Assembly: GCA_963804975.1 (NCBI GenBank)
Contig: CAWDSG010000002.1
Coordinates: 494,224-558,223, forward strand
From: an uncultured bacterium
GTDB lineage: Bacteria > Patescibacteriota > Minisyncoccia > Phycocordibacterales > GWA1-40-21
DNA: 64,000 bases
Reading direction: 5' to 3'
Below the pieces are notes generated by a model, which was given only the letters and a program-made list of their open reading frames with translations, had not been told where the DNA came from and did no database searches. This document shows, in pieces, positions 17,634 to 56,670 of this stretch. Both the position numbers and the translations under genes were made by a program. Each line of letters begins with the position of its first letter. Within the stretch, counting starts at the first letter, position 1.

Positions 17634-17682
17634 AATATAATCTGTGAAATTGTACTATGAAATGCAACGATTCACAATACCA

Positions 17683-17710
17683 AAACCCCGAGGCGAGACC
17701 TCGGGATTTA
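17683..17710. repeat. GC-rich palindrome family unit (CCCGAGG-CGAGA-CCTCGGG)
   Basis: Intergenic hairpin with A-run and T-run flanks. Confidence 0.6.
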
Positions 17711-27200: not shown

Positions 27201-30200
27201 GTCGCTATCACATTTCCATTCATATCAACCGCAAGGAATGAATTTGAAAGATTTGAAATGTTCAGATTTTGAGTCGTTATTGTTCCCACCACATACAAAA
27301 CTGTGGCAGGCGTAGTCGTCCCAATCCCCACCTTTCCCCCATCTTTTACCGCAAATACTGTGGTTGTATTATCAACCAAATCCAATAAATCTCCTGTTCC
27401 TTTTCCTGTCACATTTAACACTGCTCCTGTTGCAGTAGCGAATCCCTGCGTTATGGAGAGAACATTTGCAGAATGAGCAATAGTTCCTCCTGTTTGTGTC
27501 ATCGTATCATTTATATCAACTACCGAACCTGTAACTGTAAGAGTTTGGCCAGCATTGTTATAATCGTAGCTTCTTGAAAAACTTGCTATATTTCCTGCCA
27601 TTGCATATGAGTTTGCTGTAAGATTTGTCGCTCCCGAAACATTTAATAATTTTCCCGATAATGCTGTCTGGCGAGAAGTCGCTCCTGTTTGAGATATAGA
27701 TAAACCAGTGCCAGAAGTCATTGCCGAACTAGGAGTAACAGTCATAATTGTTCCTGTATAATTTGTGGAAGGGCTAGATTGCACGGAAAGAGCCGTGAGA
27801 GTGTTTGATGTAGCTCCAACAACACTAAGTTGTTCAGTTGGGTTTGTTTGATTTATTCCTACGTAACCTGATGGAGCTATATACAAAGCTGAAGTTCCGC
27901 TTGAAGAAGCGAAATTTGCAATGGCGGGAGTGAAACTTGTGCCGTCTACCATTGTGGTCGTGCCGACAACAGACAAAGAAGCGCTTGGCGTGGAGCTTCC
28001 AATTCCCACCGTTCCGTTGCCAGAAACAACCATAAGAGCATTGGCAGAGGACAAAACATTTCCATTAACCTCTTTGGCTGAAATTACCAAAGTCGGATAT
28101 GTGGTGGAAGCAGATACTGGTTGTATATTGAGAGCTATTTGGTTCGCTTGGCTGTTCGCGGTTGAAACTGCATAAGCTAATCCTGAAAATGTAAGCAAAT
28201 CAGATGATTGGATTCTGTTTCCCGCTGTAGCCGCAGTTGTGTTTGTAATTAAGACAGCATTGCCAGAAGTTGTCGTTCCAATACCATTCATTGTATCGGT
28301 AATGGTGTTTGAAAAACCTCCTGTTGTCGCTCCCGTAAGAGCGCCTGTCATCGTCAAAGTTCCTCCCTGACTAAGCGTTAATCTGGTGGCATAAGCAGAA
28401 TTATTGGAGGAAGAATTAAACATAAGTTGAGGATTTGCAACTGTCGCTTGTTGAGGCACGCTTGTTATTTGCCATTCAGCTGGCTGTGAAGTGGACGCTG
28501 TCGTTCCCCAACCGTAGGATTTGAACCATATTGAAGGGCTGTATTGCTGGCTTCCTGAAGCTGCAGCTGTGTTGTTTATCAAAGACAAACCTGATGTGGT
28601 GGCAGCGGTTGCTCCAATATTTTCAGTATCCAATTCAAGCAATGACGCGGGAGAAGTCGTCCCAATCCCCACATTCCTCGTCGCATAATCATAATAAATC
28701 CCAGAATCGGTCAAAGCACCGCTTGATGTGGCGTATTGAATATATCCAGTTGTGAAAGGAGAGGTGGAAGCCAAGAAAGACAGGGTGTTTGAAAGATATG
28801 GGAGAGAGGTGGAAGCTGAAAGAGGAAGGAAAGTTGAAGTCACCCAGCTCGTGGAAGCAAAAGTGCTTGAAGCGTATGCGAATGTCGGATAGTTGGATGT
28901 CAGATATGAAGTTGATGCAAAAGTTCCAAGGACCCAGGAAGTGGAAGCGAAAGTTGATGAAGCGTAAGTAAACGTCGGGAAGTTTGTTGTTACAAAACTG
29001 GTAGAAGCGTAAGTGGAAGAAGCCATGGCAGAAGAGATAAACTGGGAGGTGGAGTTGTCGGCGGTGGAAAGATCCTGGCCGGAGATGTTTGAAATGTAGT
29101 TATTCGTATTTGACCATGCAAGCGGAGAGCCGACGGTTCCAATACCCGATAGAGTCCCTCCTGAGGTTACGACGCCTGTGAGATAACTCATCCCTGTCCA
29201 TGGAGTGCCTGTGACAAACTGGGATGTGGTGGTAGAGATGACATTACCTGAAGTATCAACCGCAATAAAACTGTTTGTAAGATTTGAAATGTTTAGTCCT
29301 TGTGTTGTGGAAGTACCAATGACCGAAAGCGCTGCGTTTGGAGTGGTAGTACCGATGCCCACAGTTCCGCTAAATGTTGATGTGGCAAACGTTGATGTCC
29401 CCAAGACCGTAAAATTGTGAGTTCCTAAATCCACATCCGCGGTCGCTCCTGAATATGGGACAAAATTTGTTGCATCAACCGTGTTTGAAGGAAGAGCAAT
29501 ATGCGAATCGGCTTCGTCTCCGTAATAAAGATCTACTGTCGGAGAAAATGGACCTGGTCCAGAAATTGTTGCATAAACCTTTGTCACTATTCTCGAAGAA
29601 GTTGAGGCCATAATATATGTGCTTGATGTTGCGAAGTACAAGCGATATTCAACTTCTGAAGTCCCAATGGCTGGTGTTACTTCTGATGTGCCGATTCTGG
29701 CTATATTCGCTCCGCTTGAATTGGCTTCCCAAATCTCTGCGTACAACGTGACAGTCTTGCCGTTTGCTACAGGTCTTGCAGCATGAATATGGAATTCATA
29801 TTGTCCTGCGGGAATAAAAGTAAGATTTGGAAAACCCGGATCTGTAATCCAGTTTTGCACAACATCGGTTCCAACCGGAAGAGTGGTGGTTGATAAAGTT
29901 GTTTTTGGAGTATAAGGAGTTGGAAGTTGTTTTTTGTATCCAGTTACATTTGATGCTGTATTTTGAAAATAATAGGTTAGGGTGCCTTGTGCCGGCAAAG
30001 TTTGCCAACTTGGCGCTGCGGAATTCACTCCATCTCCTGTCTGAGCGAGAAACTTTTGGACAGTTGTTGTGTTGCCGGAAAGAACTGTTGCCGCTCCTGA
30101 ATCTCCGCCATAAATGATATCTCCAAGAGTGGTCATTGGCTGATACGAAGAAGAAGCATATTCAAATGTCGGGAAGTTTGTTGTTACAAAACTTGTCGAT

Positions 30201-33200
30201 GCAAATGTGGATGATGCGTATGAGAATGTCGGATAGTTTCCTGTGAGGTATGAGGTGGAAGCGTAAGTGGAGGAGGCATAAGCGAAGGTTGGATAGTTGG
30301 ATGTCAGATATGAAGTCGAGGCGAATGTACCGAGGACCCAGGATGTTGATGCGAATGTGGAAGAGGCATATGCAAAGCTCGGATATGTTGAAGTCAGTGT
30401 CGTGGTGGAAACATAATCTGCTCCGAGAGCGGTGATTGTTTCAAAAGTGTTTGTCACCCATGAAGTGGAAGCGAAGGTTCCAAGGACCCATGTGGTCGAA
30501 GCGTATGTCGATGAAGCGGTGGCGGAAGAGAGAAACTGCGAAGTGGAATTGTCCGCGGTGGAAAGATCCTGGCCGGAGATGTTTGAAATGTAGTTATTCG
30601 TATTTGACCATGCAAGCGGAGAGCCGACGGTTCCAATGCCTGAGAGAGTCCCTCCCGAAGTTACGACGCCTGTGAGATAACTCATCCCTGTCCATGGAGT
30701 GCCTGTGACAAACTCTGATGTGGTGGTGGAAGTGATGTTTCCGTTTTGATCAACTGCAAGGAATGAGCTTGTAAGATTGTTGCCCAAAGTGACTTGAGAG
30801 ATAGTGGTTGAGGCCATGATGTTGGTGCCGTTTGCCGTGAAGCTTTGAGTCCCAAGATTGACTGCTCCTGTCGCACCGGTGTAAGGGACATAGGTTGCGG
30901 TGACAAAGGAAGTTGATGCGAAGGTGGAAGAGGCGTACGCAAATGTCGGGAAGTTTGTTGTTACAAAACTTGTGGAAGCGAATGTACCGAGGACCCAGGA
31001 TGTTGATGCGAATGTCGAAAGAACCCATGAAGTGGAAGCAAAAGTTCCAACTATCCACGAGGTGGAAGCAAAAGTAGAGGAAGCGTATGCGAATGTCGGG
31101 AAGTTATTCACAACAAATGAAGTTGAGGCGAAGGTGGAGGAAGCGTAGCTGAATGAAACATACGTCGATGTTGCATTCGCAATCTTCAAATAAGTGGATG
31201 AAGCTGTGGTAGTGGAAAGCAAAGCGTTCAAAGCGGTTTCCAAATCTCCTTGATCTGAAAGTGGTCCTGTAATAGCGCCCCATGCCACGGTAGCGCTGCC
31301 GCTTGAAGCAAATGCCCATTCAAAACCGGTTGATGAAGTTGAAGAAGCCTTTAAAAATGTTCCGGGTGTTCCCGTCTCAAGTGAAGCGATTGTCGTTGAT
31401 GAAGTCCAATACGCAAGAGTGTTTGTAGCGCCTCCGCTCAAACTCGCTCCGCTTGTAGGAGTTGTCGTTGAAATAATGTTTCCGTTTGCATCAACTGCAA
31501 GAAAAGAATTGCTTAGACCATTATCAAGCGAAAGAGATGTGATTGAAGTAGTGGCAAGAGTGGAAGTGCCGGAAACGGTGAAAGAGTTTGCTCCGAGATT
31601 CACATTTGCATTTGCTCCGGTGTAAGGAACGTATGTGGCTGTGACGAATGATGTCGAAGCGAAAGTGGAAGAAGCGTATGAGAATGTCGGAAAGTTATTC
31701 ACTACGAATGAAGTGGAAGCAAAGGTTGATGAAGCGTATGAGAATGTCGGATAATTGGATGTGAGAGTTGTAGTAGAAACATAATCAGACGAGAGAATGG
31801 AGGTGAAAGTGGAAGTGGAAATGTAATCTGTTCCAAGCGAAAGGATAGTGGCAAAAGTGTTTGTCACCCAGCTCGTGGAAGCGAAAGTTCCGATGACCCA
31901 TGAGGTGGAGGCGTAAGTGCTTGATGCGTATGAAAAATTTGGAAAATTATTTACAACGAAGCTTGTCGACGCGAATGTCGATGAAGCGTATGCGAATGTT
32001 GGAAATGTGGAAGTGATCCAGGAAGTGGAGGCAAAAGTAGAGGAAGCATAAGCAAAACTTGGAAATGTCGAATTAATCCAGGAAGTGGAGGCGAATGTTC
32101 CGAGAACCCACGATGTCGACGCGAATGTGCTTGAAGCATAAGCAAATGTCGGAAAATTATTTGTTACAAAACTTGTGGAGGCAAATGTGGAAGAGGCGTA
32201 TGCATAGTTTGGATAGTTTGCGGTGACCCACGAAGTGGAAGCGAATGTTGAGTAAACCCACGATGTCGAAGCGAACGTGCTTGAGGCGTAATCAAATGTC
32301 GGGAAATTATTCACTACGAATGATGTGGAAGCGTAAGTGGAAGAAGCGTATGAGAAGCTTGGATATGTTGATGTCAGGGTTGTCGTGGAAACATAATCTG
32401 CGGCAGCGGATGTCGTGGAAAGTTTTTCATTCAGAGCGGTTTGCAAATCACCTTGGCTTGAAAGTGTTCCGGTAATAAAACCCCAGACCCCACTTCCACC
32501 GCTCGACGAAGCCAGTGCCCAATCAAAACCTGTCGGTGATGTAGACGATGACCTTAAAAATGTTCCCGCAGTTCCTGTTGCAAGACCTGTGATTTCCGAA
32601 GTGCCGCTGAATATCGCAAGCTGATTAACTAACCCCGTTCCTGTAACCGGATTTGTTAAAGCTTTTTGAAATGTATCATTTACCCACGATGTCGAAGCGA
32701 ATGTGCTTGAAGCATAAGCAAATGTCGGGAAATTATTCACTACGAATGATGTGGAAGCGTAAGTGGAAGAAGCGTATGAGAAGCTTGGATATGTTGATGT
32801 CAGGGTTGTCGTGGAAACATAATCTGCGGCAGCGGATGTCGTGGAAAGTTTTTCATTGAATATATTCCAATCAGCACTTGATAAGGCGCCCGTTCCTGTG
32901 CTTGAAGCTAAACCGAGCGAAAGAGTTTGTCCTGCTAAATAAAGACCGTTCCCGGTGCCTATTGCCACATCGCCGCTGTTTGTACCAGTTGAAGTTCCGG
33001 AAATATTTGAAGCTGAAATTGCGCCCGTAAATGATGCGTTTATTCCGCTCAAAAGTCCGCTTGAGGCAACAGAAAATAAATTCGCTCCGGAAGAATTTTG
33101 AATTTGAAAAAGATTTGCGACTTGTCCTACAAATCCACCAATTGTGAGCGCCGTGGAATTCGTAGATGTGGAAAGAATACTGACAACCGAATTTGCAATC

Positions 33201-33703
33201 GGCGTCGTGGTGCCGAATGAAGATTGCCCTGTTCCGGAAACTGCACTTGAAAGCTGTGAGAATGCCGAAGCGGTTATGAGCTCGCGCGGAGAAAGAGTTT
33301 CAAAATATATATTGTCGGACGAAACTTCAATTTGAAGATAAACTGTATTGTTTGTGTTGAAATTATAATTCAGCGCATCCGGATATCCATTTGCGGTATC
33401 TCCGATATTCACATTGAAAACTCCCTGTCTGACCGTTGTTGAAGCAGAATTTGGAGAGAGTGCCGGCCAAAGTTTATTGCCAGTCGTAGTGCTTACATTA
33501 TCCCAGAGAGAAAATTTAAAATAATAGATCGTCCCGCTGCCGCCCAAAAGATTTCCGCTTGAATCATACAATCTGCCTTGGAAGCCCAGGATTGCCGGCG
33601 TACCGGATGCCGCGTAAGAAAAATTAAATGCTAAGGAGAATAACGATACTATTATTAATAGCTTCGCCAGGACTTTTTTACTTAAAAAATGTTTTATATA
33701 CAT
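18245..33703 (-). CDS. giant (5152 aa) repetitive surface protein with tail-fibre-like repeats, a pectate-lyase-like beta-helix, a poly-Gly module, a peptidase-S74-like chaperone segment and two C-terminal Big_2 domains
   Basis: Single ORF with a signal peptide. Carries many …NVGIGTTTP…L.V.G and YASSTFASTSW/F repeats, the TDDTAVLQSAIDT…beta-helix, GGGGGGGGGAPGGGGG…VIIIRY, SDRRLKTDITETHYGLADLMK and two TLTAINISPATANLTVGD… Big_2 repeats. Confidence 0.8.
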   Translation of the reverse strand: MYIKHFLSKKVLAKLLIIVSLFSLAFNFSYAASGTPAILGFQGRLYDSSGNLLGGSGTIYYFKFSLWDNVSTTTGNKLWPALSPNSASTTVRQGVFNVNIGDTANGYPDALNYNFNTNNTVYLQIEVSSDNIYFETLSPRELITASAFSQLSSAVSGTGQSSFGTTTPIANSVVSILSTSTNSTALTIGGFVGQVANLFQIQNSSGANLFSVASSGLLSGINASFTGAISASNISGTSTGTNSGDVAIGTGNGLYLAGQTLSLGLASSTGTGALSSADWNIFNEKLSTTSAAADYVSTTTLTSTYPSFSYASSTYASTSFVVNNFPTFAYASSTFASTSWVNDTFQKALTNPVTGTGLVNQLAIFSGTSEITGLATGTAGTFLRSSSTSPTGFDWALASSSGGSGVWGFITGTLSSQGDLQTALNEKLSTTSAAADYVSTTTLTSTYPSFSYASSTYASTSFVVNNFPTFDYASSTFASTSWVYSTFASTSWVTANYPNYAYASSTFASTSFVTNNFPTFAYASSTFASTSWVLGTFASTSWINSTFPSFAYASSTFASTSWITSTFPTFAYASSTFASTSFVVNNFPNFSYASSTYASTSWVIGTFASTSWVTNTFATILSLGTDYISTSTFTSILSSDYVSTTTLTSNYPTFSYASSTFASTSFVVNNFPTFSYASSTFASTSFVTATYVPYTGANANVNLGANSFTVSGTSTLATTSITSLSLDNGLSNSFLAVDANGNIISTTTPTSGASLSGGATNTLAYWTSSTTIASLETGTPGTFLKASSTSSTGFEWAFASSGSATVAWGAITGPLSDQGDLETALNALLSTTTASSTYLKIANATSTYVSFSYASSTFASTSFVVNNFPTFAYASSTFASTSWIVGTFASTSWVLSTFASTSWVLGTFASTSFVTTNFPTFAYASSTFASTSFVTATYVPYTGATGAVNLGTQSFTANGTNIMASTTISQVTLGNNLTSSFLAVDQNGNITSTTTSEFVTGTPWTGMSYLTGVVTSGGTLSGIGTVGSPLAWSNTNNYISNISGQDLSTADNSTSQFLSSATASSTYASTTWVLGTFASTSWVTNTFETITALGADYVSTTTLTSTYPSFAYASSTFASTSWVLGTFASTSYLTSNYPTFAYASSTYASTSYLTGNYPTFSYASSTFASTSFVTTNFPTFEYASSSYQPMTTLGDIIYGGDSGAATVLSGNTTTVQKFLAQTGDGVNSAAPSWQTLPAQGTLTYYFQNTASNVTGYKKQLPTPYTPKTTLSTTTLPVGTDVVQNWITDPGFPNLTFIPAGQYEFHIHAARPVANGKTVTLYAEIWEANSSGANIARIGTSEVTPAIGTSEVEYRLYFATSSTYIMASTSSRIVTKVYATISGPGPFSPTVDLYYGDEADSHIALPSNTVDATNFVPYSGATADVDLGTHNFTVLGTSTFATSTFSGTVGIGTTTPNAALSVIGTSTTQGLNISNLTNSFIAVDTSGNVISTTTSQFVTGTPWTGMSYLTGVVTSGGTLSGIGTVGSPLAWSNTNNYISNISGQDLSTADNSTSQFISSAMASSTYASTSFVTTNFPTFTYASSTFASTSWVLGTFASTSYLTSNYPTFAYASSTFASTSWVTSTFLPLSASTSLPYLSNTLSFLASTSPFTTGYIQYATSSGALTDSGIYYDYATRNVGIGTTSPASLLELDTENIGATAATTSGLSLINNTAAASGSQQYSPSIWFKSYGWGTTASTSQPAEWQITSVPQQATVANPQLMFNSSSNNSAYATRLTLSQGGTLTMTGALTGATTGGFSNTITDTMNGIGTTTSGNAVLITNTTAATAGNRIQSSDLLTFSGLAYAVSTANSQANQIALNIQPVSASTTYPTLVISAKEVNGNVLSSANALMVVSGNGTVGIGSSTPSASLSVVGTTTMVDGTSFTPAIANFASSSGTSALYIAPSGYVGINQTNPTEQLSVVGATSNTLTALSVQSSPSTNYTGTIMTVTPSSAMTSGTGLSISQTGATSRQTALSGKLLNVSGATNLTANSYAMAGNIASFSRSYDYNNAGQTLTVTGSVVDINDTMTQTGGTIAHSANVLSITQGFATATGAVLNVTGKGTGDLLDLVDNTTTVFAVKDGGKVGIGTTTPATVLYVVGTITTQNLNISNLSNSFLAVDMNGNVIATSTADLFTNYVNYNYASSTFASTSFVVNNFPTFAYASSTFASTSWIVGTFASTSWVTSTFETIASLGADYVSTTTLTANYPTFAYASSTFASTSFVTATYVPYSYASSTFASTSWIVGTFASTSWVTNTFATIANYPTYTYASSTFASTSFVTTNFPTFAYASSTFASTSFVTATYVPYTGATGAVNLGTQSFTANGTNIMASTTISQVTLGNNLTSSFLAVDQNGNITSTTTSEFVTGTPWTGMSYLTGVVTSGGTLSGIGTVGSPLAWSNTNNYISNISGQDLSTADNSTSQFLSSATASSTYASTTWVLGTFASTSWITSTFPSFAYASSTFASTSFVVNNFPSYAYASSTFASTSWVTNTFETITALGADYVSTTTLTSTYPSFAYASSTFASTSWVLGTFASTSYLTSNYPTFTYASSTFASTSWVLGTFASTSFVTTNFPTFAYASSTFASTSFVTATYVPYTGATGAVNLGTQSFTANGTNIMASTTISQVTLGNNLTSSFLAVDQNGNITSTTTSEFVTGTPWTGMSYLTGVVTSGGTLSGIGTVGSPLAWSNTNNYISNISGQDLSTADNSTSQFLSSATASSTYASTTWVLGTFASTSWITSTFPSFAYASSTFASTSFVVNNFPSYAYASSTFASTSFVTATYVPYTGATTNVNLGANTFTVSGTSTLATTSITQLTLGNGLASTFLAVDPNGKIISTTTPTGSSQWTTNASSIYYSGNVGIGTTSPLAKFEVYGTAGNNAIANFASSTNSSVLYIAASGFVGIGTTTPATALYVIGTSTIQNLNISNLSNAFLAVDSSGNVITTTTPSGSSASSSLSANVIYASTLSGIHSDSNLTSGGGTDDTAVLQSAIDTLASEGGGELILDKVFLVGSLHVPSDITIRGLGWNTGLYRADHTDAPIIRNENPSTTTAQDTNIQLINFQVSLNGINQDATPIESEGDCWVNGVAFYGVSDVTLDTIRVYNADQPNIELPIMFTNTSYVTVENTEVYMGLSTNNDGIHFTGPNSHLVLKNIKGAVGAQLIDLNSTDAVNGLQDCSATPWIINSGDITDVLIDGIEFMGSEYGISVLSGANNIKHLTIKNVHGTTVYWTIGFWNAWDAPTYTGGIIDDVLLENISMTYGQPIQAYHIGSGLVHIGNLQISNSRWAYNGANVPWFNIESGVTIDSLQMDNITVNNSGQPLIKNDAEIKTLSMNGIKWYRPAGSSPSGYMIGGNGTTDLVSMVDLDLLYLSGAINPTQTVGTSTSYIANDLNVLGNVISSDDISAQNLNALTINSTTSNSTEANISDTLITGTANITQAITFGTTTAGLGGTVTVDGAYTIRTFTSSGTFTTPASTTDYSVLIVAGGGGGGGGGAPGGGGGAGGAVASSSITLATSTAYTVTVGDGGEPAVNGDDSSFDDLTASGGGHGCTYEGTTGDGGSGGGGGYSCPTGGAGTAGQGYDGGDGAGAVDPYETGGGGGAGDVGGTYTSYQSGNGGVGTSSGITGYTAYYGGGGGGTASTQGTVYGTGGAGGGGDGAIDGSSNGSDGTANTGGGGGGSHGGTGGSGGSGVIIIRYLTPANQQPTIYLTNINGLFNFTAGISIAGVLGINTSSPAAFLDVYGTSTLQKANLFTISSSSLARLFTVSNAGYVGIGASNPQNALSLTGGDNISIDMSTPAKPTIASSTTGGTLSARVYYIKISASDGVGVTTPSTEVTATTTGTTGSITLSGYSVTGASSYRIYFATSTGAGNENVYISTTTTTFVLSTSTPAVYTAGTVPTVTTAYVDKISASGNSWLLGGNVGIGSSTPVSLLELGKTISGTTTLSAGALFDEQAYTFTDASTSIGKTGTGMTWNYFGQQTIAATNASTTQTNLFGVYIAGAPTTSGGGIKNVGTSTALFVNGGTVSASTTIAYSLVVIAPTGAASNYAAYFNGNVGIGTSTSNSILSVASTSASLISPAFQVQTGSTGAPTNGLVYFNFNGARTAGGAAFQITDISTTIATTTQITSNSLTTGNALTINATGLTTGSGEAIFTTGTSQTGPALLVQTGSTGAPTNGLVYFNFNSARNTGTSNTGFQITDLSTNGTTTQITSNSMSTGTAMTINATALTSGSGLSIITTNTTQTGPSLKVQTGGTSAPTNGLVYFNFNGARTAGGAAFQITDISTTIATTTQITSNSLTTGNALTINATGLTTGSGEAIFTTGTSQTGPALLVQTGSTGAPTNGLVYFNFNSARNTGTSNTGFQITDLSTNGTTTQITSNSMSTGTAMTINATALTSGSGLSIITTNTTQTGPSLKVQTGGTSAPTNGLVYFNFNGARTAGGAAFQITDISTTIATTTQITSNSLTTGNALTINATGLTTGSGEAIFTTGTSQTGPALLVQTGSTGAPTNGLVYFNFNAAHTNTGFQITDLATTGTTTQITANSSTGGTGLAIIMNSSSKAAGAALFILASSTAASSTTADAGIIIDRNSASGNGLRYIRFGSISGPEIGAIINSSNSAISYVTGSDRRLKTDITETHYGLADLMKVQVADFKWISDGSGDTGFIAQDLYNIYPNAVTAGDNGTDPYILGTTNTWSVDYGKLTPLILKGVQDLNNNFIASTTALEASSSADEANINEINNTLSRFLNASSSTLTIDSITAGVEIIAPSIKVNGLIVDSVSSLADAISFMNDTIFFGRPYFNTDTAGFAVIAKGQESVDVKFDNPYLEQPIVNATISLNKSDNPAADSAAVGDIFANDIRYVIANKSTIGFTIILNKPAIDNTTFSWTAFAIKNAKTFGYPSDYTLPAASSSPPSGGLSGSGSSGNSSSTLTTINITPVTASLTIGDATTTQQLSAETLDQNGDSIIATLTWASDNVLVATVDDSGLVTPVGAGTANITASSGLITSDSSVITVASVSAPMPTLTAINISPATANLTVGDATTTQQLSAETLDQNGDSIIATLTWASDNVLVATVDDSGLVTPVGAGTANITASSGLITSNPAAITVQDSATSTP
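18288..18790. repeat. two tandem 279-bp repeats, each encoding a C-terminal Big_2 Ig-like domain
   Basis: Near-identical DNA copies starting at 18294 and 18573. Confidence 0.7.
19970..21360. repeat. intragenic tandem repeat, 501-bp period, about 2.7 copies, 100% identical
   Basis: Identical sub-ORFs at 20118/20619/21120 and at 20364/20865. Encodes 167-aa units (…TNGLVYFNFN…) with an internal ~83-aa sub-period. Confidence 0.85.
25250..26760. repeat. intragenic tandem repeat, 867-bp period, about 1.75 identical copies
   Basis: Identical sub-ORFs at 25312/26179, 25384/26251 and 25600/26467. Confidence 0.85.
30290..30990. repeat. dispersed third copy of the 867-bp repeat unit, with an internal deletion
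   Basis: The sub-ORF 30682-30942 is identical to 25600-25860. Confidence 0.7.
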
Positions 33704-37020: not shown

Positions 37021-37145
37021 CAAAAAGAAATAAGCGAGCGAGAAATAACTTTTTTGGAGACTTGGGAGCGCGTCGGCGCGAGCACGAGGAATTTTTTAGC
37101 AAAAAAATATCCGTGCTCTAAAAAAGCTATTTTTCGCTCGCTTAT
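37021..37145. repeat. MITE-like palindromic element, copy C1
   Basis: TIRs TAAGCGAGCGAGAAATAACTTTTTTGGAG / CTCTAAAAAAGCTATTTTTCGCTCGCTTA. The centre is GAGCACGAGG-AATTTTTTAGCAAAAAAAT-ATCCGTGCTC. Confidence 0.6.
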
Positions 37146-37148
37146 CAA

Positions 37149-38006
37149 TTATTTCTTCAAAATAGAAATCGCATCCCGTATTGCGCTTGCGGGAGCAAAT
37201 AGATTATCTCCGCTTGAATATGTTGATTTTATTCCCGCAAGCTCGCCGGAAAGATTGAACAAAAGCCCGCCGGATATTAGATTGCTGCTCGGAACACTTG
37301 TTTGCATTGAGATGACGATTGTTTGGATTTGCGGAGTCGTTGATGCCGCCGTGGAAGAAGCGGAAATATCTTTTGTATTTAAACTTGAAATGATTCCCGT
37401 CGCTACAACATTTTTTGTTTGCCCTCCGATATAAACTATTGCTTGGCCGAGCTGCAAATCGTTGCTTGCAAGCGCAACGCTAGACAATGCGGGAGTGCTC
37501 GTGCCATTTATATTTATTTTCAAAAGAGCGACTTTCTGGCTCGGATCTACCTCCATAATGGATAGATCATATGATATCCCGTCATTTGTTTTCATAAAAT
37601 ATTTTCCATCCGTAAATATAATTCCGTTGTCCGTTGCTATAGTTCCGTCATTTGATACGACAACGCCGATTCCGACAAAATCGGCCACGGCAAGACCCGT
37701 GTTCTGATCCACGCCTCTTTCATATATTCTGACAATGCTTCCAGTATTTTTATTTATGGCGCTCACAACCTGATCATCTTCGCTCACAACAACCGTTTCT
37801 TTGATAGTTGTCTGATTATTCTTTGACGGAGTTGATGTTGCAACCACGGTCTCTATCGTTTTTTCTACAACGCGGTTGATCGTCTGACTGACGCCGATCG
37901 GCGCCTGATTCATCAAAGCCACGGTCACAATTCCGGTAGCAATAGAAGTGATGAAACTTACAAGAAGCGTCAGAAGCACTATTTGATGTTTAGTGAGATT
38001 TTCCAT
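37149..38006 (-). CDS. membrane-anchored trypsin-like (HtrA/S1C-like) protease domain protein, possibly degenerate
   Basis: N-terminal TM helix. ISGGLLFNLSGELAGI resembles the HtrA GNSGGPLVNLDGEVIGI block. Confidence 0.45.
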   Translation of the reverse strand: MENLTKHQIVLLTLLVSFITSIATGIVTVALMNQAPIGVSQTINRVVEKTIETVVATSTPSKNNQTTIKETVVVSEDDQVVSAINKNTGSIVRIYERGVDQNTGLAVADFVGIGVVVSNDGTIATDNGIIFTDGKYFMKTNDGISYDLSIMEVDPSQKVALLKININGTSTPALSSVALASNDLQLGQAIVYIGGQTKNVVATGIISSLNTKDISASSTAASTTPQIQTIVISMQTSVPSSNLISGGLLFNLSGELAGIKSTYSSGDNLFAPASAIRDAISILKK

Positions 38007-38036: not shown

Positions 38037-39206
38037 CTATTTGCAAATTTTGAATAATTCGTTCAAGAGATATTTTATATGCTTCATTTTTGTTTCTCTG
38101 CCGAGAGAAAATCTCAAAACCGATTTGGCTCGTGCGTCAATTTCTTTTGCAGATAAATTTGCTCTTTCGCTTATTCTTCTGACAACTTCTGATTCGCCCG
38201 AACCGGAAGCGCAAGCGCTTGCCGAAGAACAAACAATCCCCATTTCATCAAGGCGCAGCACCATCATTTCGCCATCCTGTCCGGGAATTGAAATATTGAT
38301 GTTGTTTGGCAAGCGATTTTTCAAATCGCCGTTTATTATAGCTTCCGGGACGAATTTTTTGACGAAGTCAAAAAATTCGTCTCTCATCTGTGCAACTTTA
38401 ACACTTTCTTTTTCTTTCACCTCTTCATTTATCTCCATCGCTTTTGCAAATCCGACAATCAACGGCACATTTTCCGTCCCGCTCCTTCTTCCTGCTTCCT
38501 GCCCTCCGCCAAAAATAATCGGAGAAATTTTTACTCCGTCTCGCACATAAAGTGCGCCAATTCCTTTCGGTCCGTAAATTTTCTGTGCATCAAGCGTCAT
38601 CAAATCCACTCCGAGTTCTTCAACGTTTAAATTCAAATATTGCGCCGCTGCCGAAGCGTCTGTATGAAAATAAGGGTAATCGATTCTTTCTATGCCAAAT
38701 TCTTTTCGCGCATAGCGAATTTCTTTTATAATTTCCTTTATCGGCTGGATTGTTCCGATTTCACTATTTGCATATCCGATTGAAACAAGAACGGTTTCCG
38801 GTTTTATTAAATCTCGCAAATCCTTAGGATTTATCAGACCGTTTTCATCAACTTTCAAATAATCAACTTTAAAACCTCGCCTTTCCAATTCTTTGAAACA
38901 TTCCAGAATTGAGCTGTGTTCAATTTCCGTAGTTATAAAATGCGCTTTTTTATCAGAAATCAAGCCAAAAATCGCTAAGTTATTCGCTTCTGTTCCGCCG
39001 GAAGTAAAAATAATTTCCCTGTCGTGCGCAGACAAAATATCCGCGATTTTTTTCCTCGCTTCTTGTACTGCTTTTTTCGCTTCCACACTCATTTTGTGGA
39101 TTGAACTCGGATTTCCAAAATCCTTCGCCCAATATCTTTTCATTGCCTTAATTACCCTTTTATCGGTAGGTGTAGTCGCTGCATTATCCAAATAAATTTT
39201 CCTCAT
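38037..39206 (-). CDS. cysteine desulfurase (class V aminotransferase, IscS/NifS-like)
   Basis: MRKIYLDNAATTP start, SGGTEANN and a PLP-lysine region. The ORF track start at 39386 is a 60-codon upstream extension that is unlikely to be used. Confidence 0.85.
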   Translation of the reverse strand: MRKIYLDNAATTPTDKRVIKAMKRYWAKDFGNPSSIHKMSVEAKKAVQEARKKIADILSAHDREIIFTSGGTEANNLAIFGLISDKKAHFITTEIEHSSILECFKELERRGFKVDYLKVDENGLINPKDLRDLIKPETVLVSIGYANSEIGTIQPIKEIIKEIRYARKEFGIERIDYPYFHTDASAAAQYLNLNVEELGVDLMTLDAQKIYGPKGIGALYVRDGVKISPIIFGGGQEAGRRSGTENVPLIVGFAKAMEINEEVKEKESVKVAQMRDEFFDFVKKFVPEAIINGDLKNRLPNNINISIPGQDGEMMVLRLDEMGIVCSSASACASGSGESEVVRRISERANLSAKEIDARAKSVLRFSLGRETKMKHIKYLLNELFKICK

Positions 39207-39270: not shown

Positions 39271-39732
39271 ATGACTTTCGATATATACACAATTGCCGGA
39301 GTCGCGATAATAATTTTACTTCTCTTCTTTTGGATTATTCGCCTTGAAATAAAGCTGCGAAAGCTTCTCGGAAAAAGAAATGGCACTTTGGATGAATCGA
39401 TAGATACTCTCAGAAAAGATGCGGATTATATGAAAAATTATTCGGAAAAAGCCACGGAAAGATTGAATTTGATAGAAAAAAGGTTGAAAAAAACCATTTC
39501 CGGAAATCAAACCGTGAGATTCAATCCTTTCAAAGGCGATGGCTCAGGAGGCAATCAAAGCTTCTCCACAGCTCTTATTGATAGCGAAGGCGACGGTGTT
39601 GTCATATCAAGCATGTATTCCCGAGATCATGTGAGTGTCTTTGGAAAACCCGTAAAAAACCTTAAATCTGAATACGAATTGAGCACAGAAGAAAAAACTG
39701 CCTTGCAAAAAGCCAAAGAAAGTATAATATAA
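39271..39732 (+). CDS. hypothetical membrane protein (N-terminal TM, coiled coil)
   Basis: ORF divergent from the desulfurase gene. No confident family assignment. Confidence 0.45.
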   Translation: MTFDIYTIAGVAIIILLLFFWIIRLEIKLRKLLGKRNGTLDESIDTLRKDADYMKNYSEKATERLNLIEKRLKKTISGNQTVRFNPFKGDGSGGNQSFSTALIDSEGDGVVISSMYSRDHVSVFGKPVKNLKSEYELSTEEKTALQKAKESII

Positions 39733-39850
39733 AGGCTCGCTAATAATAACTTTTCCAGAGCACGGATATTTTCTTGCTAGAAAATTCCTCGTGCTCGCGC
39801 CGTCGCGCTCCCAAGTCTCTGTAAAAGCTATTATTAGCTCGCCTGAAAAA
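39733..39850. repeat. MITE-like palindromic element, copy C2 (inverted relative to C1)
   Basis: TIRs AGGCTCGCTAATAATAACTTTTCCAGAG / CTCTGTAAAAGCTATTATTAGCTCGCCT. The centre is ATTTTCTTGCTAGAAAAT plus GTGCTCGCGCCGTCGCGCTCC. Confidence 0.6.
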
Positions 39851-39897: not shown

Positions 39898-41424
39898 ATG
39901 GAAAAAAATGCCTCAAACAGCATAGTGAAGCGTTCTCCCGTTGTCTGCGTAATGGGGCATATTGATCATGGAAAATCCACTCTCCTGGATTATATTAGAA
40001 AAACCAATATCGCGGAAAGTGAAGCTGGCGGAATCACCCAGAGAATTTCAGCTTATGAGGTTCTCCATAAAACTCCCGAGGGTAAAACAGAAAAAATAAC
40101 TTTTCTTGATACTCCGGGACACGAGGCGTTTAGTGCAATGAGAATATCGGGAACAACCGTTGCCGATGTCGCAGTGCTTGTTGTTTCCGCCGAAGACGGC
40201 GTCAAAAAACAAACTCTTGAAGCGTTTAAAGCCATAAATGACAGCAAACTCCCTTTTGTTGTGGCAATATCAAAAATAGACAAACCGGGGGCAAATATAG
40301 AAAAAACAAAAAGCAGCTTGATTGAAAATGGAATTTACATAGAAGGATACGGCGGAAGCGTCCCATATGTCCCAATTTCTTCAAAAACCGGGAAGGGAAT
40401 CCCGGAACTTATGGATATGATACTTCTTGTCGCGGAAATGGCTGAACTGAAAGGCGACACAAAAAAACTGGCGGAAGGAATGATCATAGAAGCCCGCATG
40501 GACAAGCAGAAAGGCATAACAGCCGTGCTTATAATAAAAAACGGCCATTTGAAAAGCGGAATGTATATTGTCTCGGGAGAAAGCATCACTTCAACGAGAA
40601 TGATGGAGGATTTTTTGGGTAAAAAAATAAAAGAAGCGTCATTCTCCTCTCCCGTCAGAGTTATCGGTTTTGATAAATTGCCGAAAGTCGGAAGGCCTTT
40701 CAAGAGTTTCAAAAGCAAAAAGGAAGCGGAGAAATTTATTGAGACAAAAAAAGAAAATCAAAAAACAATTTCTTCTGTAAAAAAATCAAAATCCGATGAG
40801 TCCACTGAAAATCTTGATAAAGTCCTGATACGAATCGTGATAAAAGCCGAAGTTGCCGGCGCAATAGACGCAATAGAGCATGAAATAAATAAAATAAAAA
40901 ACGATAAAGTAAAAATTAAAATAATCAGCACCGGAATCGGAAATATTTCGGAAAATGACGTTAAGCTCGCTTCAGGAAGAAATCCCGCAACAATACTTGG
41001 TTTTGATGTAGGCATAGATTTATCAGCGAAGGATTTAGCGGAAAGATTTAATGTGCAAATAAAAAACTTTGATATAATCTACAAGATTTCCGAGTGGCTC
41101 GCGGAAGAAGTAGCGAATAAAACCCCGAAAGTCATGGTGGAAGAAACCACTGCTGAAGCGAAGGTTTTGAAATTTTTCAGCACAATGAAGGATAAGCACA
41201 TTATCGGCGCAAGAGTTGAGAAAGGAACCATCTTCATAGGAGAAGATGTAAAAATAATGCGCAAGGGCGTTGAAATAGGCAGAGGAAAGATAAGGGATCT
41301 GGAAAAAGATAAAAATAAGATCGGAGAAGCACGCGAAGGAGTGGAGTTCGGCTGCCAATTCCAGTCCGACATCGTCCCCGCTCCCGGAGACAAATTGGAA
41401 ATATTTAAGATTATGGAAAAGTAG
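39898..41424 (+). CDS. infB: translation initiation factor IF-2 (short form without the N-terminal domain)
   Basis: GHIDHGKST…DTPGHEAF G-domain followed by IF-2 domains II to IV. Only 508 aa. Confidence 0.9.
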   Translation: MEKNASNSIVKRSPVVCVMGHIDHGKSTLLDYIRKTNIAESEAGGITQRISAYEVLHKTPEGKTEKITFLDTPGHEAFSAMRISGTTVADVAVLVVSAEDGVKKQTLEAFKAINDSKLPFVVAISKIDKPGANIEKTKSSLIENGIYIEGYGGSVPYVPISSKTGKGIPELMDMILLVAEMAELKGDTKKLAEGMIIEARMDKQKGITAVLIIKNGHLKSGMYIVSGESITSTRMMEDFLGKKIKEASFSSPVRVIGFDKLPKVGRPFKSFKSKKEAEKFIETKKENQKTISSVKKSKSDESTENLDKVLIRIVIKAEVAGAIDAIEHEINKIKNDKVKIKIISTGIGNISENDVKLASGRNPATILGFDVGIDLSAKDLAERFNVQIKNFDIIYKISEWLAEEVANKTPKVMVEETTAEAKVLKFFSTMKDKHIIGARVEKGTIFIGEDVKIMRKGVEIGRGKIRDLEKDKNKIGEAREGVEFGCQFQSDIVPAPGDKLEIFKIMEK

Positions 41425-44279: not shown

Positions 44280-44310
44280 GAGATGAGTATAGCAAATTTT
44301 TAAAAATTTG

Positions 44311-44391
44311 TGGGCGGGAGAGGACTTGAACCTCCATGCCTTGCGGCACTAGCTCCTAAGGCTAGCGTGTCTACCATTTCACCACCCGCCC
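44311..44391 (-). tRNA. tRNA-Leu (TAG), class II
   Basis: The reverse complement reads GGGCGGGTGGTGAAATGGTAGACAC…CTAGC-CTTAGGA-GCTAG with a long variable arm and GGAGG-TTCAAGT-CCTCT. Confidence 0.8.
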
Positions 44392-44414
44392 AATAATAAA
44401 TATTGCAATATCTG

Positions 44415-44500
44415 CAATTTGTGGTCACAAGTATTTTCTTGCTAGAAAATCTCGCGACCCCGCCTCGGCACGTCTGCCTCCGGCTCGCACATTGCGAAAG
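44415..44500. repeat. MITE-like element related copy C4 in the tRNA-Lys/tRNA-Leu spacer
   Basis: ATTTTCTTGCTAGAAAAT plus CTCGCGACCCCGCCTCGGCACG…GGCTCGC. The adjacent 13-bp inverted repeat CGCACATTGCGAA / TTCGCAATGTGCG reaches into the tRNA-Lys 3' end. Confidence 0.5.
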
Positions 44501-44546
44501 AAAATCGCTTAAAAAATAATATGGTGATTTTCAATTATTCGCAATG

Positions 44547-44618
44547 TGCGCCCAGTTGGAATCGAACCAACGACCTTTTGCTTAAGAGGCAATTGCTCTA
44601 CCGACTGAGCTATGGGCG
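44547..44618 (-). tRNA. tRNA-Lys (CTT)
   Basis: The reverse complement reads GCGCCCATAGCTCAGTCGGTAGAGC with anticodon loop CTCTTAA and GTTGG-TTCGATT-CCAAC. Confidence 0.8.
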
Positions 44619-44712
44619 CAAGAACAGACATCAAAATAACAGAAAATTTGAGAAAAATCAATTTAAACAAAAACCGCCTCTCGACAGTTTTTGTTTTTAA
44701 AATTTTATATAT

Positions 44713-49260: not shown

Positions 49261-49284
49261 ATCATATTTAATAAATTATTTTTG

Positions 49285-49371
49285 CGGAAGGGGCGGGATT
49301 CGAACCCGCGGTGCCGTTTCCAGCACACAGTCTTTCCAGGACTGCTCGTTAGACCACTCCGACACCCTTCC
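49285..49371 (-). tRNA. tRNA-Ser (GGA), class II
   Basis: The reverse complement reads GGAAGGGTGTCGGAGTGGTCTAACGAGC…CAGTC-CTGGAAA-GACTG with a long variable arm and GCGGG-TTCGAAT-CCCGC. Confidence 0.85.
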
Positions 49372-49424
49372 GTTTTATTTAAAACGAATAACACATCGTC
49401 TTTCCAGAGTTGGTCACATATAAT

Positions 49425-49495
49425 TTTCTGCTGAAAATTTACGCGACCCCGCCTCGCACCGCCGTGCTCCGGCTTTGAAAAGCTCCATATATTCG
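49425..49495. repeat. MITE-like element related copy C5 upstream of tRNA-Ser
   Basis: ATTTTCTGCTGAAAATTT plus ACGCGACCCCGCCTCGCACCGCCGTGCTCCGGC. Confidence 0.5.
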
Positions 49496-49546
49496 CTTTT
49501 CAACACCAGACCAACTATGCGAACCCTCCTTAGATGCGATAATACT

Positions 49547-56600: not shown

Positions 56601-56616
56601 ATAAAAAACCCGAGGG

Positions 56617-56670
56617 AAAACCCCGAGGTTAAACCTAGGGGAGCTCCCCTAGGTTTAACCTCGGGGTTTT
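56617..56670. repeat. nested GC-rich palindrome (compound copy) acting as a bidirectional terminator between rnj and the 804-aa gene
   Basis: AAAACCCCGAGGTTAAACCTAGGGG-AGC-TCCCCTAGGTTTAACCTCGGGGTTTT, a perfect 25-bp arm. A half-unit CCCGAGGG precedes it. Confidence 0.75.

Follow-up and report, generated by a model that had tools for sequence, protein, structure and literature searches.

The repeats present in the 64-kb stretch of DNA analysed here (the window) belong to a new family of structured, probably RNA, elements with some mobility, which is spread across Patescibacteria (CPR) and is neither a classical MITE nor a promoter or terminator. This family, a strand-specific three-way-junction repeat, is apparently undescribed, and literature searches on CPR revealed nothing of the kind. 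It occurs in two forms: type a, in which the conserved core lies at the apex of a long hairpin, and type b, which is located beside tRNA genes. The explanation that we consider best, and to which we give about an even chance, is that these are CPR-wide structured elements, probably an RNA module, with long-lived type b copies and dispersed type a copies.

An earlier note on this DNA had listed five copies and one fragment, and all six places carry the motifs described there, far beyond chance. As compared to dinucleotide shuffles of the window, the AT palindrome has 6 matches (1.0 expected), CTCGCGCCGWCGCGCTCC has 4 occurrences (0.04 expected), and TTYYAGCARRAA and GGAGNNNGNCGNNNCGAG have 6 each (0.43 and 0.36 expected, respectively). 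A covariance model built from 124 copies, with which the whole window was scanned unfiltered, detects exactly five strong copies (62–82 bits) and one decayed copy. The cores of the strong copies are located at 49407-49478 (82.3 bits), 44418-44489 (79.2 bits), 9433-9500 (64.8 bits) and 39753-39819 (62.0 bits) on the minus strand, and at 37057-37123 on the plus strand (62.7 bits, against 13 bits on the minus strand). The fragment, noted at 6443-6465, is real and forms part of the decayed copy (6414-6485, plus strand, 21.2 bits, E ~0.001), in which only the AU-rich hairpin with its AGCA loop (6454-6471) is still recognisable; this copy is on the strand opposite to the neighbouring tRNA-Arg (6313-6385). 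Together with their outer repeats, the type a copies extend over 9414-9526 (minus), 37030-37145 (plus) and 39733-39846 (minus), while both type b copies (cores at 44418-44489 and 49407-49478) are on the minus strand, which is that of the tRNAs. The units of ~115 bp in the window resemble one another, arms included: the three type a copies are 74–82% alike, and the copy at 39733-39846 is 82% complementary to that at 37030 (82% alike over 119 nt). A multi-copy, structured, intergenic repeat family is genuine; the names given to its neighbours in the earlier note (clpB, infB and an ftsB-like gene) agree with Pfam, which identifies ClpB, a short IF-2 and a DivIC/FtsB-like protein. In a public assembly of the same strain, breaks fall exactly within two copies.

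The similarity extends well beyond the window, as the earlier note had proposed to check. A degenerate pattern matched more than 119 genomic stretches, all of them from Patescibacteria/CPR and from many lineages labelled as separate candidate phyla, and had no match in 2.9 million viral contigs. In 697 kb of pattern-matched loci (comparison loci outside the window being 8-kb stretches), the covariance model gives 132 hits, of which 28 do not fit the search pattern. Density is estimated at roughly one copy per 13–25 kb, and genomes seem to carry dozens of copies. Rfam 15 yields no gathering-score match in the window or in 18 loci, and none overlapping the core at E ≤10.

The conserved unit is a core of ~70 nt consisting of two adjacent hairpins. 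In the first of them, H1 (lost in the decayed copy), a G+C stem of 4 bp carries a GNCG tetraloop and stands on a tandem G·A platform (C-G-GA...GA-G), beneath which come 2–3 closing pairs. The second, H2, is 16–17 bp long and rich in A+U towards its top, where it ends in an AGCA tetraloop; a single A is bulged out of it. The flanks pair with each other as a third helix, P1, and thereby join H1 and H2 in a three-way junction. The two GC-rich segments regarded in the earlier note as alternatives turned out to be different things: the GC hairpin (CTCG..CGNC..CTCC) is present in all five strong copies, including those of type b (CTCGGCACGTCTGCCTCC at 44464-44481 and CTCGCACCGCCGTGCTCC at 49453-49470), while CGCGACCCCGCC is an additional segment, which forms the base of H2 and is confined to the two tRNA-linked copies.

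Over the 22 modelled pairs in 124 copies, 93.3% of the cells are paired, as compared to 70% in shuffled and at most 49% in slid controls, and 581 cells are changed on both sides, against 168 in shuffles. The closing pairs covary (columns 6-28 and 7-27), the GA/GA positions and their flanking helices are present, and the bulged A is retained in 120 of the 124 copies. Since the search pattern fixes 23 core positions, their conservation is only partly tested, through the 28 off-pattern hits. These copies extend the covariation (pair 12-23 changes from G-C to A-U) and partly confirm the pattern-fixed GA positions. There are also variants with swapped modules, in which the AGCA hairpin stands on the GGAG/CGAG platform and a GA-GCGACGGC-GA hairpin sits atop H2; such swapping of apical modules is typical of folded RNAs.

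The AT palindrome of the earlier note does occur in the copies, although it is really a hairpin with a fixed and asymmetric AGCA loop, and therefore the strand of each copy can be defined. In the core of the 124 copies, G·U combinations outnumber A·C ones by 159 to 18 (34 to 6 in type a copies alone), and since G·U pairs lie on one strand, the core folds as a single strand. The strand-specific G·U pairing and the tandem G·A motifs are as would be expected of a folded single strand. The covariance model assigns 62–82 bits to one strand of the five window copies and at most 13 bits to the other, and in four of the five the canonical strand folds better by 8–17 kcal/mol. Single-stranded DNA, too, can form G·T wobble and sheared G·A pairs.

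Type a cores are placed at the apex of long, near-perfect, copy-specific hairpins, often next to stop codons and in either orientation. The terminal inverted repeats reported in the earlier note are real in all three type a copies of the window (28–30 nt), but they are not conserved between copies elsewhere: the arms are unrelated between copies of other genomes and only partly common within single MAGs (L018/L021 and L079). In the copy at 37030-37145 (plus), P1 pairs 37030-37059 with 37116-37145 (30-nt arms, 90% complementary), H1 is GGA-GCGC-GTCG-GCGC-GAG at 37065-37082, and the AGCA loop of H2 is at 37098-37101. This copy ends 3 nt from the stop codon of a trypsin-like gene (37149-37151), its canonical strand is antisense to both neighbouring genes, and its fold has −53.5 kcal/mol (z = −7.6). 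The copy at 39733-39846 (minus) has its P1 arms at 39733-39760 and 39817-39844, and close to the foot of this stem there is a tandem G·A motif (GGC-GA...GA-GCC). It begins directly past the DUF4446 stop codon (39730-39732) and upstream of the IF-2 gene, with its canonical strand antisense to both genes and a fold of −52 kcal/mol, against −44 for the opposite strand. In the copy at 9414-9526 (minus), the P1 that closes the core (9433-9500) is long and includes a GA...GA motif. This copy separates the lepA stop codon (9537) from the DivIC/FtsB-like gene, and its canonical strand is sense to both genes; the canonical and opposite strands fold at −50.1 and −41.1 kcal/mol, respectively.

The long outer stems are nearly pure Watson–Crick helices without G·U bias (60 vs 43), and they look like the product of DNA-level palindrome maintenance, not of RNA selection. 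Type a copies are within 15 nt of the gene in 18 of 48 cases facing 3′ ends, as compared to 5 of 43 facing 5′ ends; with respect to the gene whose stop adjoins, 10 are sense and 16 antisense, i.e., there is no sense preference. Because orientation is unbiased and no own promoter was detected, many type a copies may never be transcribed on the canonical strand. Their proximity to tRNA genes (5/51) is at background level, and flanking direct repeats at score ≥14 were seen at none of 47 type a copies (controls, 2). The gap between the DUF4446 and IF-2 genes is 165 nt in the window and 46–63 nt in more than 10 relatives, in which the site is empty, and that between the trypsin-like gene and clpB is 196 nt in the window and 5–100 nt in relatives. 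A closer relative (L008) has a copy with unrelated arms at the same site as a type a copy of the window, and there are relatives with plain long hairpins at a site where the window has a type a copy. These differences in the occupancy of orthologous intergenic sites point to gain and loss.

Type b copies are linked to tRNAs: 43 of 77 have a tRNA within 200 nt, and among the tRNAs near them, 50 share the strand of the element and 7 do not. The earlier statement that orientation is not fixed holds for the three long-hairpin copies of the window but not for the tRNA-linked ones, which follow the tRNA strand. Type b copies are found before tRNAs, after them, and between tRNAs without space for a promoter. 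The copy at 44392-44545 (minus) takes up the whole spacer that separates tRNA-Lys(ctt) (44546-44619) from tRNA-Leu(tag) (44310-44391), two genes that share its strand. Its arm X′ (44486-44498, TTCGCAATGTGCG) is complementary to the 3′ end and trailer of tRNA-Lys (44537-44550), and a partial repeat of this trailer (CACAAATTGC, within 44412-44423) occurs past the core. The module of tRNA-Lys(ctt) and element is common to the window and to loci L122, L126, L132 and L136, with compensatory changes: across these loci the tRNA-Lys 3′ end with its trailer and arm X′ co-vary perfectly, the neighbouring proteins being only 50–75% identical to those of the window. tRNA-Leu(tag) directly follows the module in the window and in all of these loci except L122. 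The other type b copy (49393-49529, minus) is placed inside a truncated pseudo-copy of tRNA-Ser, upstream of the real tRNA-Ser(gga) (49284-49371). It comprises a tRNA-Ser-like 5′ fragment (49504-49529), hairpin H0 with a GAAUAUAUGGA loop (49475-49503), the core (49407-49478) and an anticodon-arm remnant (49393-49411); a promoter-like site (49567-49539) is directly upstream of the fragment, and in locus L057 the same tRNA-Ser 5′ fragment forms an exact 27-nt direct repeat.

Of 70 type b copies, 24 are flanked by directly repeated pieces of the target tRNA or 5S. These repeats are 15–74 nt long, and their variable length differs from that of a fixed-length target-site duplication; the earlier note had suggested to look for target-site duplications. 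In ~12 copies, the repeat of the tRNA 3′ end starts in the T-loop and extends a few nt beyond the gene, leaving the tRNA intact, while other duplications involve 5′ parts of tRNAs or fragments of 5S. Duplicated tRNA pieces extend into flank that is untranscribed or unprocessed, and CCA is missing from them. Many copies have the arrangement X-X′-core-X, where X′ is an inverted copy of the target adjoining the core, and the 3′ boundary is constant (...GTGACC) while the 5′ modules are variable. The four 5S-associated copies are antisense to 5S rRNA.

Conserved cis-regulatory architecture, i.e., a promoter, operator or terminator serving tRNA and housekeeping genes, might be suggested by the intergenic position of the copies, by the location of type b near tRNAs on the same strand, by type a copies abutting stops and by the plain long hairpins at the same site in relatives. 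However, no terminator was found at the elements in a scan of the window, and there is no U-tract after the type a hairpin in either direction (mean T per 10 nt 3.2 vs 2.8; at least 6 T in the 10 nt past the hairpin in 8–10% of cases, either direction). Sigma-70-like promoters are neither associated with the elements nor enriched there, and the strong promoter-like site of clpB (37023-36996) is outside the element. Given also the mixed orientation of type a, the occurrence of type b on either side of tRNAs and between them, and an invariant 70-nt core that a generic hairpin would not need, we consider a regulatory origin highly improbable and abandon the promoter or terminator role supposed in the earlier note. 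Still slimmer is the chance of a classical MITE, i.e., a DNA transposon that has terminal inverted repeats but depends on a transposase encoded elsewhere. The ~115-bp unit with its 28–30-bp inverted ends, the likeness of the three window copies (ends included), the assembly breaks at copies and the differing occupancy among relatives would all fit, but it is the centre that is conserved and not the ends, with arms wholly different between copies elsewhere and partly so within one genome. Moreover, the core is strand-asymmetric, its distribution is superphylum-wide and not lineage-restricted or local, the long-hairpin copies have no target-site duplication, and no transposase with matching ends was found in the window or the 8-kb loci; the only transposase gene of the window, of the IS110 family (7220-8332), has flanks unrelated to the element.

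A single-stranded-DNA element, whose core is recognised and moved or copied by a recombinase or HUH-type enzyme that makes the flanking duplications, as in REP/RAYT, IS200/IS605 ends and integron attC sites, is rather unlikely in our opinion, though it accounts for a good deal: the promoterless and randomly oriented type a copies, their near-perfect Watson–Crick arms, the tRNA and 5S repeats at type b copies, the antisense position of the 5S-adjacent copies and the variable occupancy. The core hairpin also has a bulged base, which is a known recognition feature of such enzymes. However, no Y1/HUH gene is encoded in the window, where the IS110-family gene is the only transposase gene, and the loops, platform and bulge are kept across many candidate phyla, which would be unusual for REP-like sites, since these co-evolve with their enzyme within genera. 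G·U as the commonest combination at one pair position (78/124 copies), variants with swapped modules typical of RNA tertiary folds, and the strong same-strand bias of type b with tRNAs also speak against it. A retroposon-like small RNA, whose "master" copies in tRNA operons are reverse-transcribed and inserted by target-primed synthesis, seems quite improbable. It would account for the target duplications of variable length, for the variable 5′ modules behind a constant 3′ boundary (truncation), for the inverted target copies in the X-X′-core-X layout (template jumps or snap-back) and for randomly oriented, apparently young type a copies with perfect arms. Against it, the window encodes no reverse transcriptase, the duplicated tRNA pieces carry untranscribed or unprocessed flank and no CCA, and the same repeats could result from homologous recombination or from tandem duplication with later decay; we know of no bacterial precedent for such insertion.

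More specific identities were also rejected. A sigma-54 promoter (GG-N10-GC around TTGC) would require a better −24 box and, in the tRNA-linked copies, another spacing, and a heat-shock operator (CIRCE/HAIR-like) upstream of clpB does not agree with the same element lying beside unrelated genes. Covarying stems show that the loop is GNCG and not the ACGR of mini-ykkC/guanidine-II; the CUGANGA of the hammerhead, considered for its GA-stem-GA core, is absent; and the AGCA that recalls SRP RNA is here a hairpin loop of a multi-copy element. The resemblance to the Y RNA/Ro-binding stem (GGUC.../...UUGUGACC) has no Rfam hit and is only a lead. Domain V of group II introns has 34 nt with an AGC triad and a GNRA loop, and domain VI has a bulged A; H1 is only ~23 nt with a GNCG loop, there is no Rfam Intron_gpII hit, and the bulged A of the core is 9 nt from the constant 3′ boundary (7–8 nt from the end in domain VI). 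TIGR-Tas stem arrays are tandem arrays adjoining tas genes, with box C/D motifs and spacers (PMC12045711), while the units of our element are dispersed. The ncRNAs of UG/Abi reverse transcriptases (PMC9226505) were judged not relevant.

Under the reading that we prefer, that of CPR-wide structured elements, the core would be an RNA module, probably a protein-binding scaffold, although it may alternatively be a small ribozyme. Type b copies lie within tRNA transcription units, and we infer that they would be transcribed from tRNA promoters on the tRNA strand and freed by tRNA-processing enzymes as RNAs of ~90–150 nt. They may be long-lived, as suggested by the tRNA-Lys-element module shared with relatives, while type a copies are presumably younger and dispersed, with a fast turnover, and may serve merely as generic 3′-end hairpins. 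Under this reading the family spreads or duplicates within genomes, and at tRNA and 5S genes duplicated pieces of the target flank it. More tentatively, with less than an even chance, it may represent a kind of small structured RNA that has not been recognised before and is specific to Patescibacteria. Such an RNA would be produced from tRNA operons and would insert copies of itself into the ends of genes for tRNAs, 5S and proteins; an RNA-mediated or structure-directed mechanism would then leave the duplicated and inverted target pieces (X-X′-core-X). If so, we would be dealing with a bacterial SINE-like or ribozyme-like mobile RNA occupying ~1% of streamlined genomes.

Patescibacteria have genomes of ~1 Mb with very little non-coding DNA, and yet the element seems to be present at dozens of sites per genome. 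So many sites, together with the radiation-wide conservation, argue for a function connected with some process or factor that all these organisms share, for which tRNA maturation, RNA turnover or a conserved RNA-binding protein are candidates; the alternative would be an unusually ancient and successful selfish element. The duplications of tRNA and 5S fragments hint at an insertion mechanism not described in bacteria. In practice, a new RNA family and its covariance model become available for the annotation of CPR genomes, the element explains assembly breaks and spurious ORFs in CPR MAGs, and the system is testable, since Saccharibacteria can be cultivated.

Among known systems, the REP/BIME sequences of enterobacteria and pseudomonads (associated with RAYT transposases) are likewise short structured extragenic repeats with tens to hundreds of copies per genome, often at gene 3′ ends in both orientations and with a defined hairpin strand. 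However, they are single hairpins of 20–40 nt that have a tetranucleotide of the GTAG type at the 5′ end and are restricted to one genus or family, whereas our element has a two-hairpin junction core of ~70 nt kept across a superphylum, with half of its copies linked to tRNAs and with no RAYT gene seen in the window; the REP/RAYT architecture, which also includes a RAYT gene flanked by REPs, is not that of our element. Correia/NEMIS of Neisseria, ERIC, RUP and BOX elements share the length of ~100–150 bp, the inverted ends forming long hairpins, the intergenic location and the strain-variable occupancy, but they are lineage-restricted and have conserved terminal repeats and target duplications (TA for Correia), while in our family the ends are copy-specific, the centre is conserved and the long-hairpin copies have no duplication. 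Islands of tyrosine integrases, which target the T-loop or anticodon loop of tRNAs, similarly leave a repeat of the tRNA 3′ end and an intact tRNA, as seen in 12–24 type b copies; the insert of our element is only ~90–200 bp without any ORF or integrase, and it also has tRNA 5′ and 5S duplications and X′ beside the core. The kink-turn of box C/D RNAs, bound by L7Ae-family proteins, resembles the core in its tandem sheared G·A around a hairpin (C-G-GA-[stem]-GA-G), and a second GA...GA motif near the base of several type a outer stems adds to this likeness; the bulge of the element is 1 nt and not 3 nt, with neither box C/D sequences nor guide segments. Small RNAs derived from tRNA precursors, such as the 3′ETS-leuZ sponge of E. 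coli and tRNA-linked snoRNAs, would share with type b the proposed route of expression, in which tRNA processing frees a structured RNA from the leader, spacer or trailer. These RNAs are single-locus and lineage-specific, whereas the element described here is multi-copy and its fold is conserved.

The palindromic repeats noticed in the window share a core of about 70 nt, drawn as a three-way junction of a GC hairpin with a GNCG loop (H1), an AU-topped hairpin with an AGCA loop (H2) and an outer stem formed by the flanks. The motifs described in the earlier note were found at all six named places, and they far exceed the counts expected from dinucleotide-shuffled versions of the window: 6 matches vs 1.0 for the AT palindrome, 4 vs 0.04 for the GC 18-mer, 6 vs 0.43 for TTYYAGCARRAA, and 6 vs 0.36 for GGAGNNNGNCGNNNCGAG. 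When the canonical strand is defined as the one with the AGCA loop, all five window copies follow the same order: GGA-(4 bp)-GNCG-(4 bp)-GAG, 9–17 nt, and the A+U-rich AGCA-loop hairpin. The two GC-rich segments are not the alternatives that they had been taken for: the first hairpin is present in every copy, and CGCGACCCCGCC is an addition restricted to the two tRNA-linked copies.

The three-helix structure was tested on an alignment of 124 non-identical cores (73 columns), where H1 pairs columns 12–15 with 20–23, two closing pairs beneath the GGA/GA internal loop join columns 6–7 to 27–28, and H2 pairs columns 31–47 with 52–68, leaving a single bulge at column 59. Standard pairs occupy 93.3% of the cells, versus 70% after shuffling and at most 49% with slid partners; both sides are changed in 581 cells vs 168 in shuffles, and double changes are seen at 19 of the 22 pairs. 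At positions left free in the search pattern, the bulged A is kept in 120/124 copies and a C precedes GGA in 106/124. Pair 12–23, fixed by the pattern, becomes A-U (GGAA...TGAG) in five copies recovered by the covariance model without the pattern, and the H2 loop in copies recovered in this way is only AGCA, ACCA, AGUA, or UGCA. Several model-recovered copies have exchanged apical modules: the GGAG/CGAG platform carries the AGCA hairpin, and H2 is topped by a GA-GCGACGGC-GA hairpin. Exchanged or nested variants occur in the comparison loci L038 (7690–7785), L066 (7541–7637), L070 (1210–1305), L007 (6744–6839), L048 (1066–1160), L086 (135–231), L020 (3830–3925), and L123 (in the tRNA-Lys trailer). 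Module swapping is typical of RNAs with a tertiary fold.

The core is strand-specific. On the canonical strand, the modelled pairs include 159 G·U vs 18 A·C (the latter being G·U on the other strand); type a copies alone, in which the core tops a long hairpin, give 34 vs 6, and at columns 36–64 G·U is the commonest pair (78/124 copies). The covariance model scores the window copies at 62–82 bits on one strand and at most 13 on the other, while the canonical strand folds 8–17 kcal/mol better in four of the five. The tandem G·A platform is another single-strand feature. Together, these data indicate that the core is a folded single strand, for which RNA is the simplest reading and single-stranded DNA a less likely one.

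The similarity is not confined to the window. Scanning the degenerate pattern GGAGNNNGNCGNNNCGAGN{9,20}TTYYAGCARRAA against GTDB, with one genome per species, gave at least 119 matching stretches, and among the matches listed every titled record is a Patescibacteria/CPR or unclassified MAG, with named lineages that include Saccharibacteria, Nomurabacteria, Paceibacterota, Kaiserbacteria, Doudnabacteria, Yanofskybacteria, Zambryskibacteria, Niyogibacteria, Adlerbacteria, Yonathbacteria, and Minisyncoccia. The absence of matches in 2.9 million viral contigs shows that the pattern is highly specific. The covariance model R1 detected 132 copies in 697 kb of pattern-matched loci, 28 of them outside the search pattern, or roughly one extra copy every 25 kb; the window contains five in 64 kb. 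By extrapolation, a genome of ~1 Mb would carry dozens of copies.

Type a (spacer of 10–12 nt; 51 copies) is represented in the window by three copies. One (37030–37145) lies between the stop codon of the trypsin-like peptidase gene (37149–51) and the strong clpB promoter-like site TTGACT-16-TATAAT (37023–36996), which is outside the element; another (39733–39846) begins directly after the DUF4446 stop codon, upstream of the IF-2 gene; the third (9414–9526) is between lepA and a DivIC/FtsB-like gene. The IF-2 gene (39898–41424, +) encodes only 508 aa, comprising the GTPase, IF-2, and C-terminal domains without the long N-terminal region, and this short length is conserved among relatives. A public contig encoding an identical DUF4446 protein has its two ends within the inverted copies, an assembly break at the repeat. 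The outer stem closing the type a core has a median of 30 bp, is 86% Watson-Crick and often perfect (e.g., 38/38), and no G·U bias was found in it (60 vs 43). Gene 3′ ends facing the stem are within 15 nt in 18/48 cases vs 5/43 for 5′ ends, and in only 10/26 does the canonical strand run in the sense of the gene that the stem abuts; tRNAs are near 5/51 copies, which is background. The supposed lack of fixed orientation holds for type a, which is mixed relative to its flanking genes, and does not extend to type b, where 50 of the tRNAs within 200 nt share the strand of the element and 7 have the opposite orientation.

Type b (spacer of 14–17 nt; 77 copies, two in the window) has the addition GCGGGGTC.../...GTGACC at the H2 base and a tRNA within 200 nt in 43/77 copies. 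The copy at 44418–44489 takes up the whole tRNA-Lys(ctt)/tRNA-Leu(tag) spacer, and that at 49407–49478 is inside a truncated tRNA-Ser pseudo-copy (5′ fragment 49504–49529, anticodon-arm remnant 49393–49411) upstream of the real tRNA-Ser. A promoter-like site (49567–49539) is just upstream of the 5′ pseudo-fragment, and none was found for the adjacent real tRNA-Ser itself. The pseudo-fragment (−) is closer to the tRNA-Ser of another genome, at L057 2132–2158 (~22/26 identical), than to the adjacent tRNA-Ser(gga), a likeness which suggests that it may have moved along with the element or may reflect an older tRNA.

Direct repeats flank 24/70 type b copies vs 1 in shuffled controls. They are fragments of the neighbouring stable-RNA gene and form three groups. 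In the 3′ class, the repeat directly follows the core and comprises the end of the tRNA, running from the T-loop (position 57/58) to 1–5 nt beyond the gene (L067, where GATTCCCTCATCGCCCGCAGGCAG is present twice; L064, L074, L069, L078, L034, L009). In the 5′ class, the repeat precedes the element and duplicates the first part of the tRNA downstream; it begins 1–6 nt upstream of that tRNA and extends to the D-loop, position 26 or the anticodon loop (L028, L070, L057, L046, L110). In the 5S class, a 27–74-nt stretch of the 5S gene is duplicated (L003, L092, L101); the copies in these loci and in L085 are antisense to 5S. An inverted copy X′ of the target, short or long, usually adjoins the 5′ side of the core, giving X-X′-core-X. 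Possible causes are site-specific integration, template switching in replication or reverse transcription, spread by homologous recombination via tRNA homology, and tandem duplication followed by decay. L117 (~4090–4195) has a tandem pair of copies, of which the first carries an ACCA loop; the 15 nt between them are a fragment (D-stem to anticodon loop) of the tRNA-Glu located downstream.

The 48 metagenomic loci retrieved via the aminotransferase at 38037–39203 keep the gene order rbfA, IF-2, DUF4446, aminotransferase, trypsin, clpB. The DUF4446/IF-2 gap is 165 nt in the window, where it holds the element, and 46–63 nt in over ten relatives, among them L138 (proteins ~72% identical); in L122 and L123 it is 130–150 nt, with unrelated perfect 20–28-bp tetraloop hairpins instead of the element. 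These lie at the exact site of copy 39733 (L122 3330–3470, L123 3340–3465; arms of 20 and 28 bp, loops GAAG and TTCG), and long palindromes appear to arise or turn over fast at gene ends in these genomes. In L008 (77–78% tblastx identity to the window over the aligned segments of IF-2 and the aminotransferase), the site of copy 39733 holds a copy in the orientation seen in the window, with unrelated arms and a diverged core. The trypsin/clpB gap is 5–100 nt in most relatives vs 196 nt in the window. A copy directly follows tRNA-Lys(ctt) in the window, L126, L132, L136, and L122, with tRNA-Leu(tag) next in all of these except L122. In this module, X′ on one side and the tRNA 3′ end with its trailer on the other have both changed, yet their complementarity is still perfect (CGCACATTGCGAA/TTCGCAATGTGCG in the window, CGGACAATGTAAA/TTTACATTGTCCG in L126). 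The retained tRNA-Lys module and the variable intergenic gaps indicate that some copies are old and kept while others turn over.

The window has other repeats as well. Eight units of a perfect palindrome, AAAACCCCGAGGTTAAACCTCGGGGTTTT (16336–16387, 16540–16612, 17682–17709, 56604–56669), look like bidirectional terminators, and a similar palindrome occupies the trypsin/clpB gap of L122. A 5152-aa ORF (18245–33703, −) is packed with internal repeats of 60–870 nt and has repeat units in common with a 1602-aa surface-type protein (59097–63905, −; Gly_rich_2, GDSL lipase, Big_3, Peptidase_S74). An IS110/IS116/IS902-family transposase gene (7220–8332, −; Pfam Transposase_20) is flanked by 119-nt direct repeats, 89% identical (6894–7012 and 8527–8645), with three GCGCTGGAC...GTCCAGCGCAGC hairpin units nearby (~8690–8632, 7205–7150, 7060–7000). 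The IS110 family uses a non-coding "bridge" RNA; no sequence relation of these flanks and hairpins to the three-way-junction element was found.

Neither Rfam 15, whether searched at gathering score or with E values up to 10, nor a full-text literature search yielded such an element. The earlier suggestion of a MITE does not hold, as direct repeats flank 0/47 type a copies and the outer stems differ from copy to copy; REP-like status fails on its defining tests too. Promoter or terminator function was likewise not borne out for type a hairpins, before which no sigma-70-like promoter and after which no U-tract was found, and the reading as an intrinsic terminator falls with the latter. Tests of the features that define a tRNA-integrating island and a group II intron fragment also speak against both. 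The main rival is a single-stranded-DNA recombination element, which would share the folded single strand and which we consider rather unlikely. The window encodes no detectable reverse transcriptase or HUH enzyme, and no transposase other than the IS110-family one was found there. The best-supported reading, to which we give about an even chance, is that the family represents a new structured RNA module found throughout Patescibacteria, which resides in tRNA operons and in dispersed, hairpin-capped copies alike. Under the RNA module reading, tRNA processing would release the type b copies; the bulged A, the two conserved tetraloops, and the G·A platform may provide contacts for a conserved partner, and many type a copies are probably young duplicates. 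Their perfect arms are possibly maintained by the template-switch "palindrome correction" known from quasipalindrome mutagenesis.
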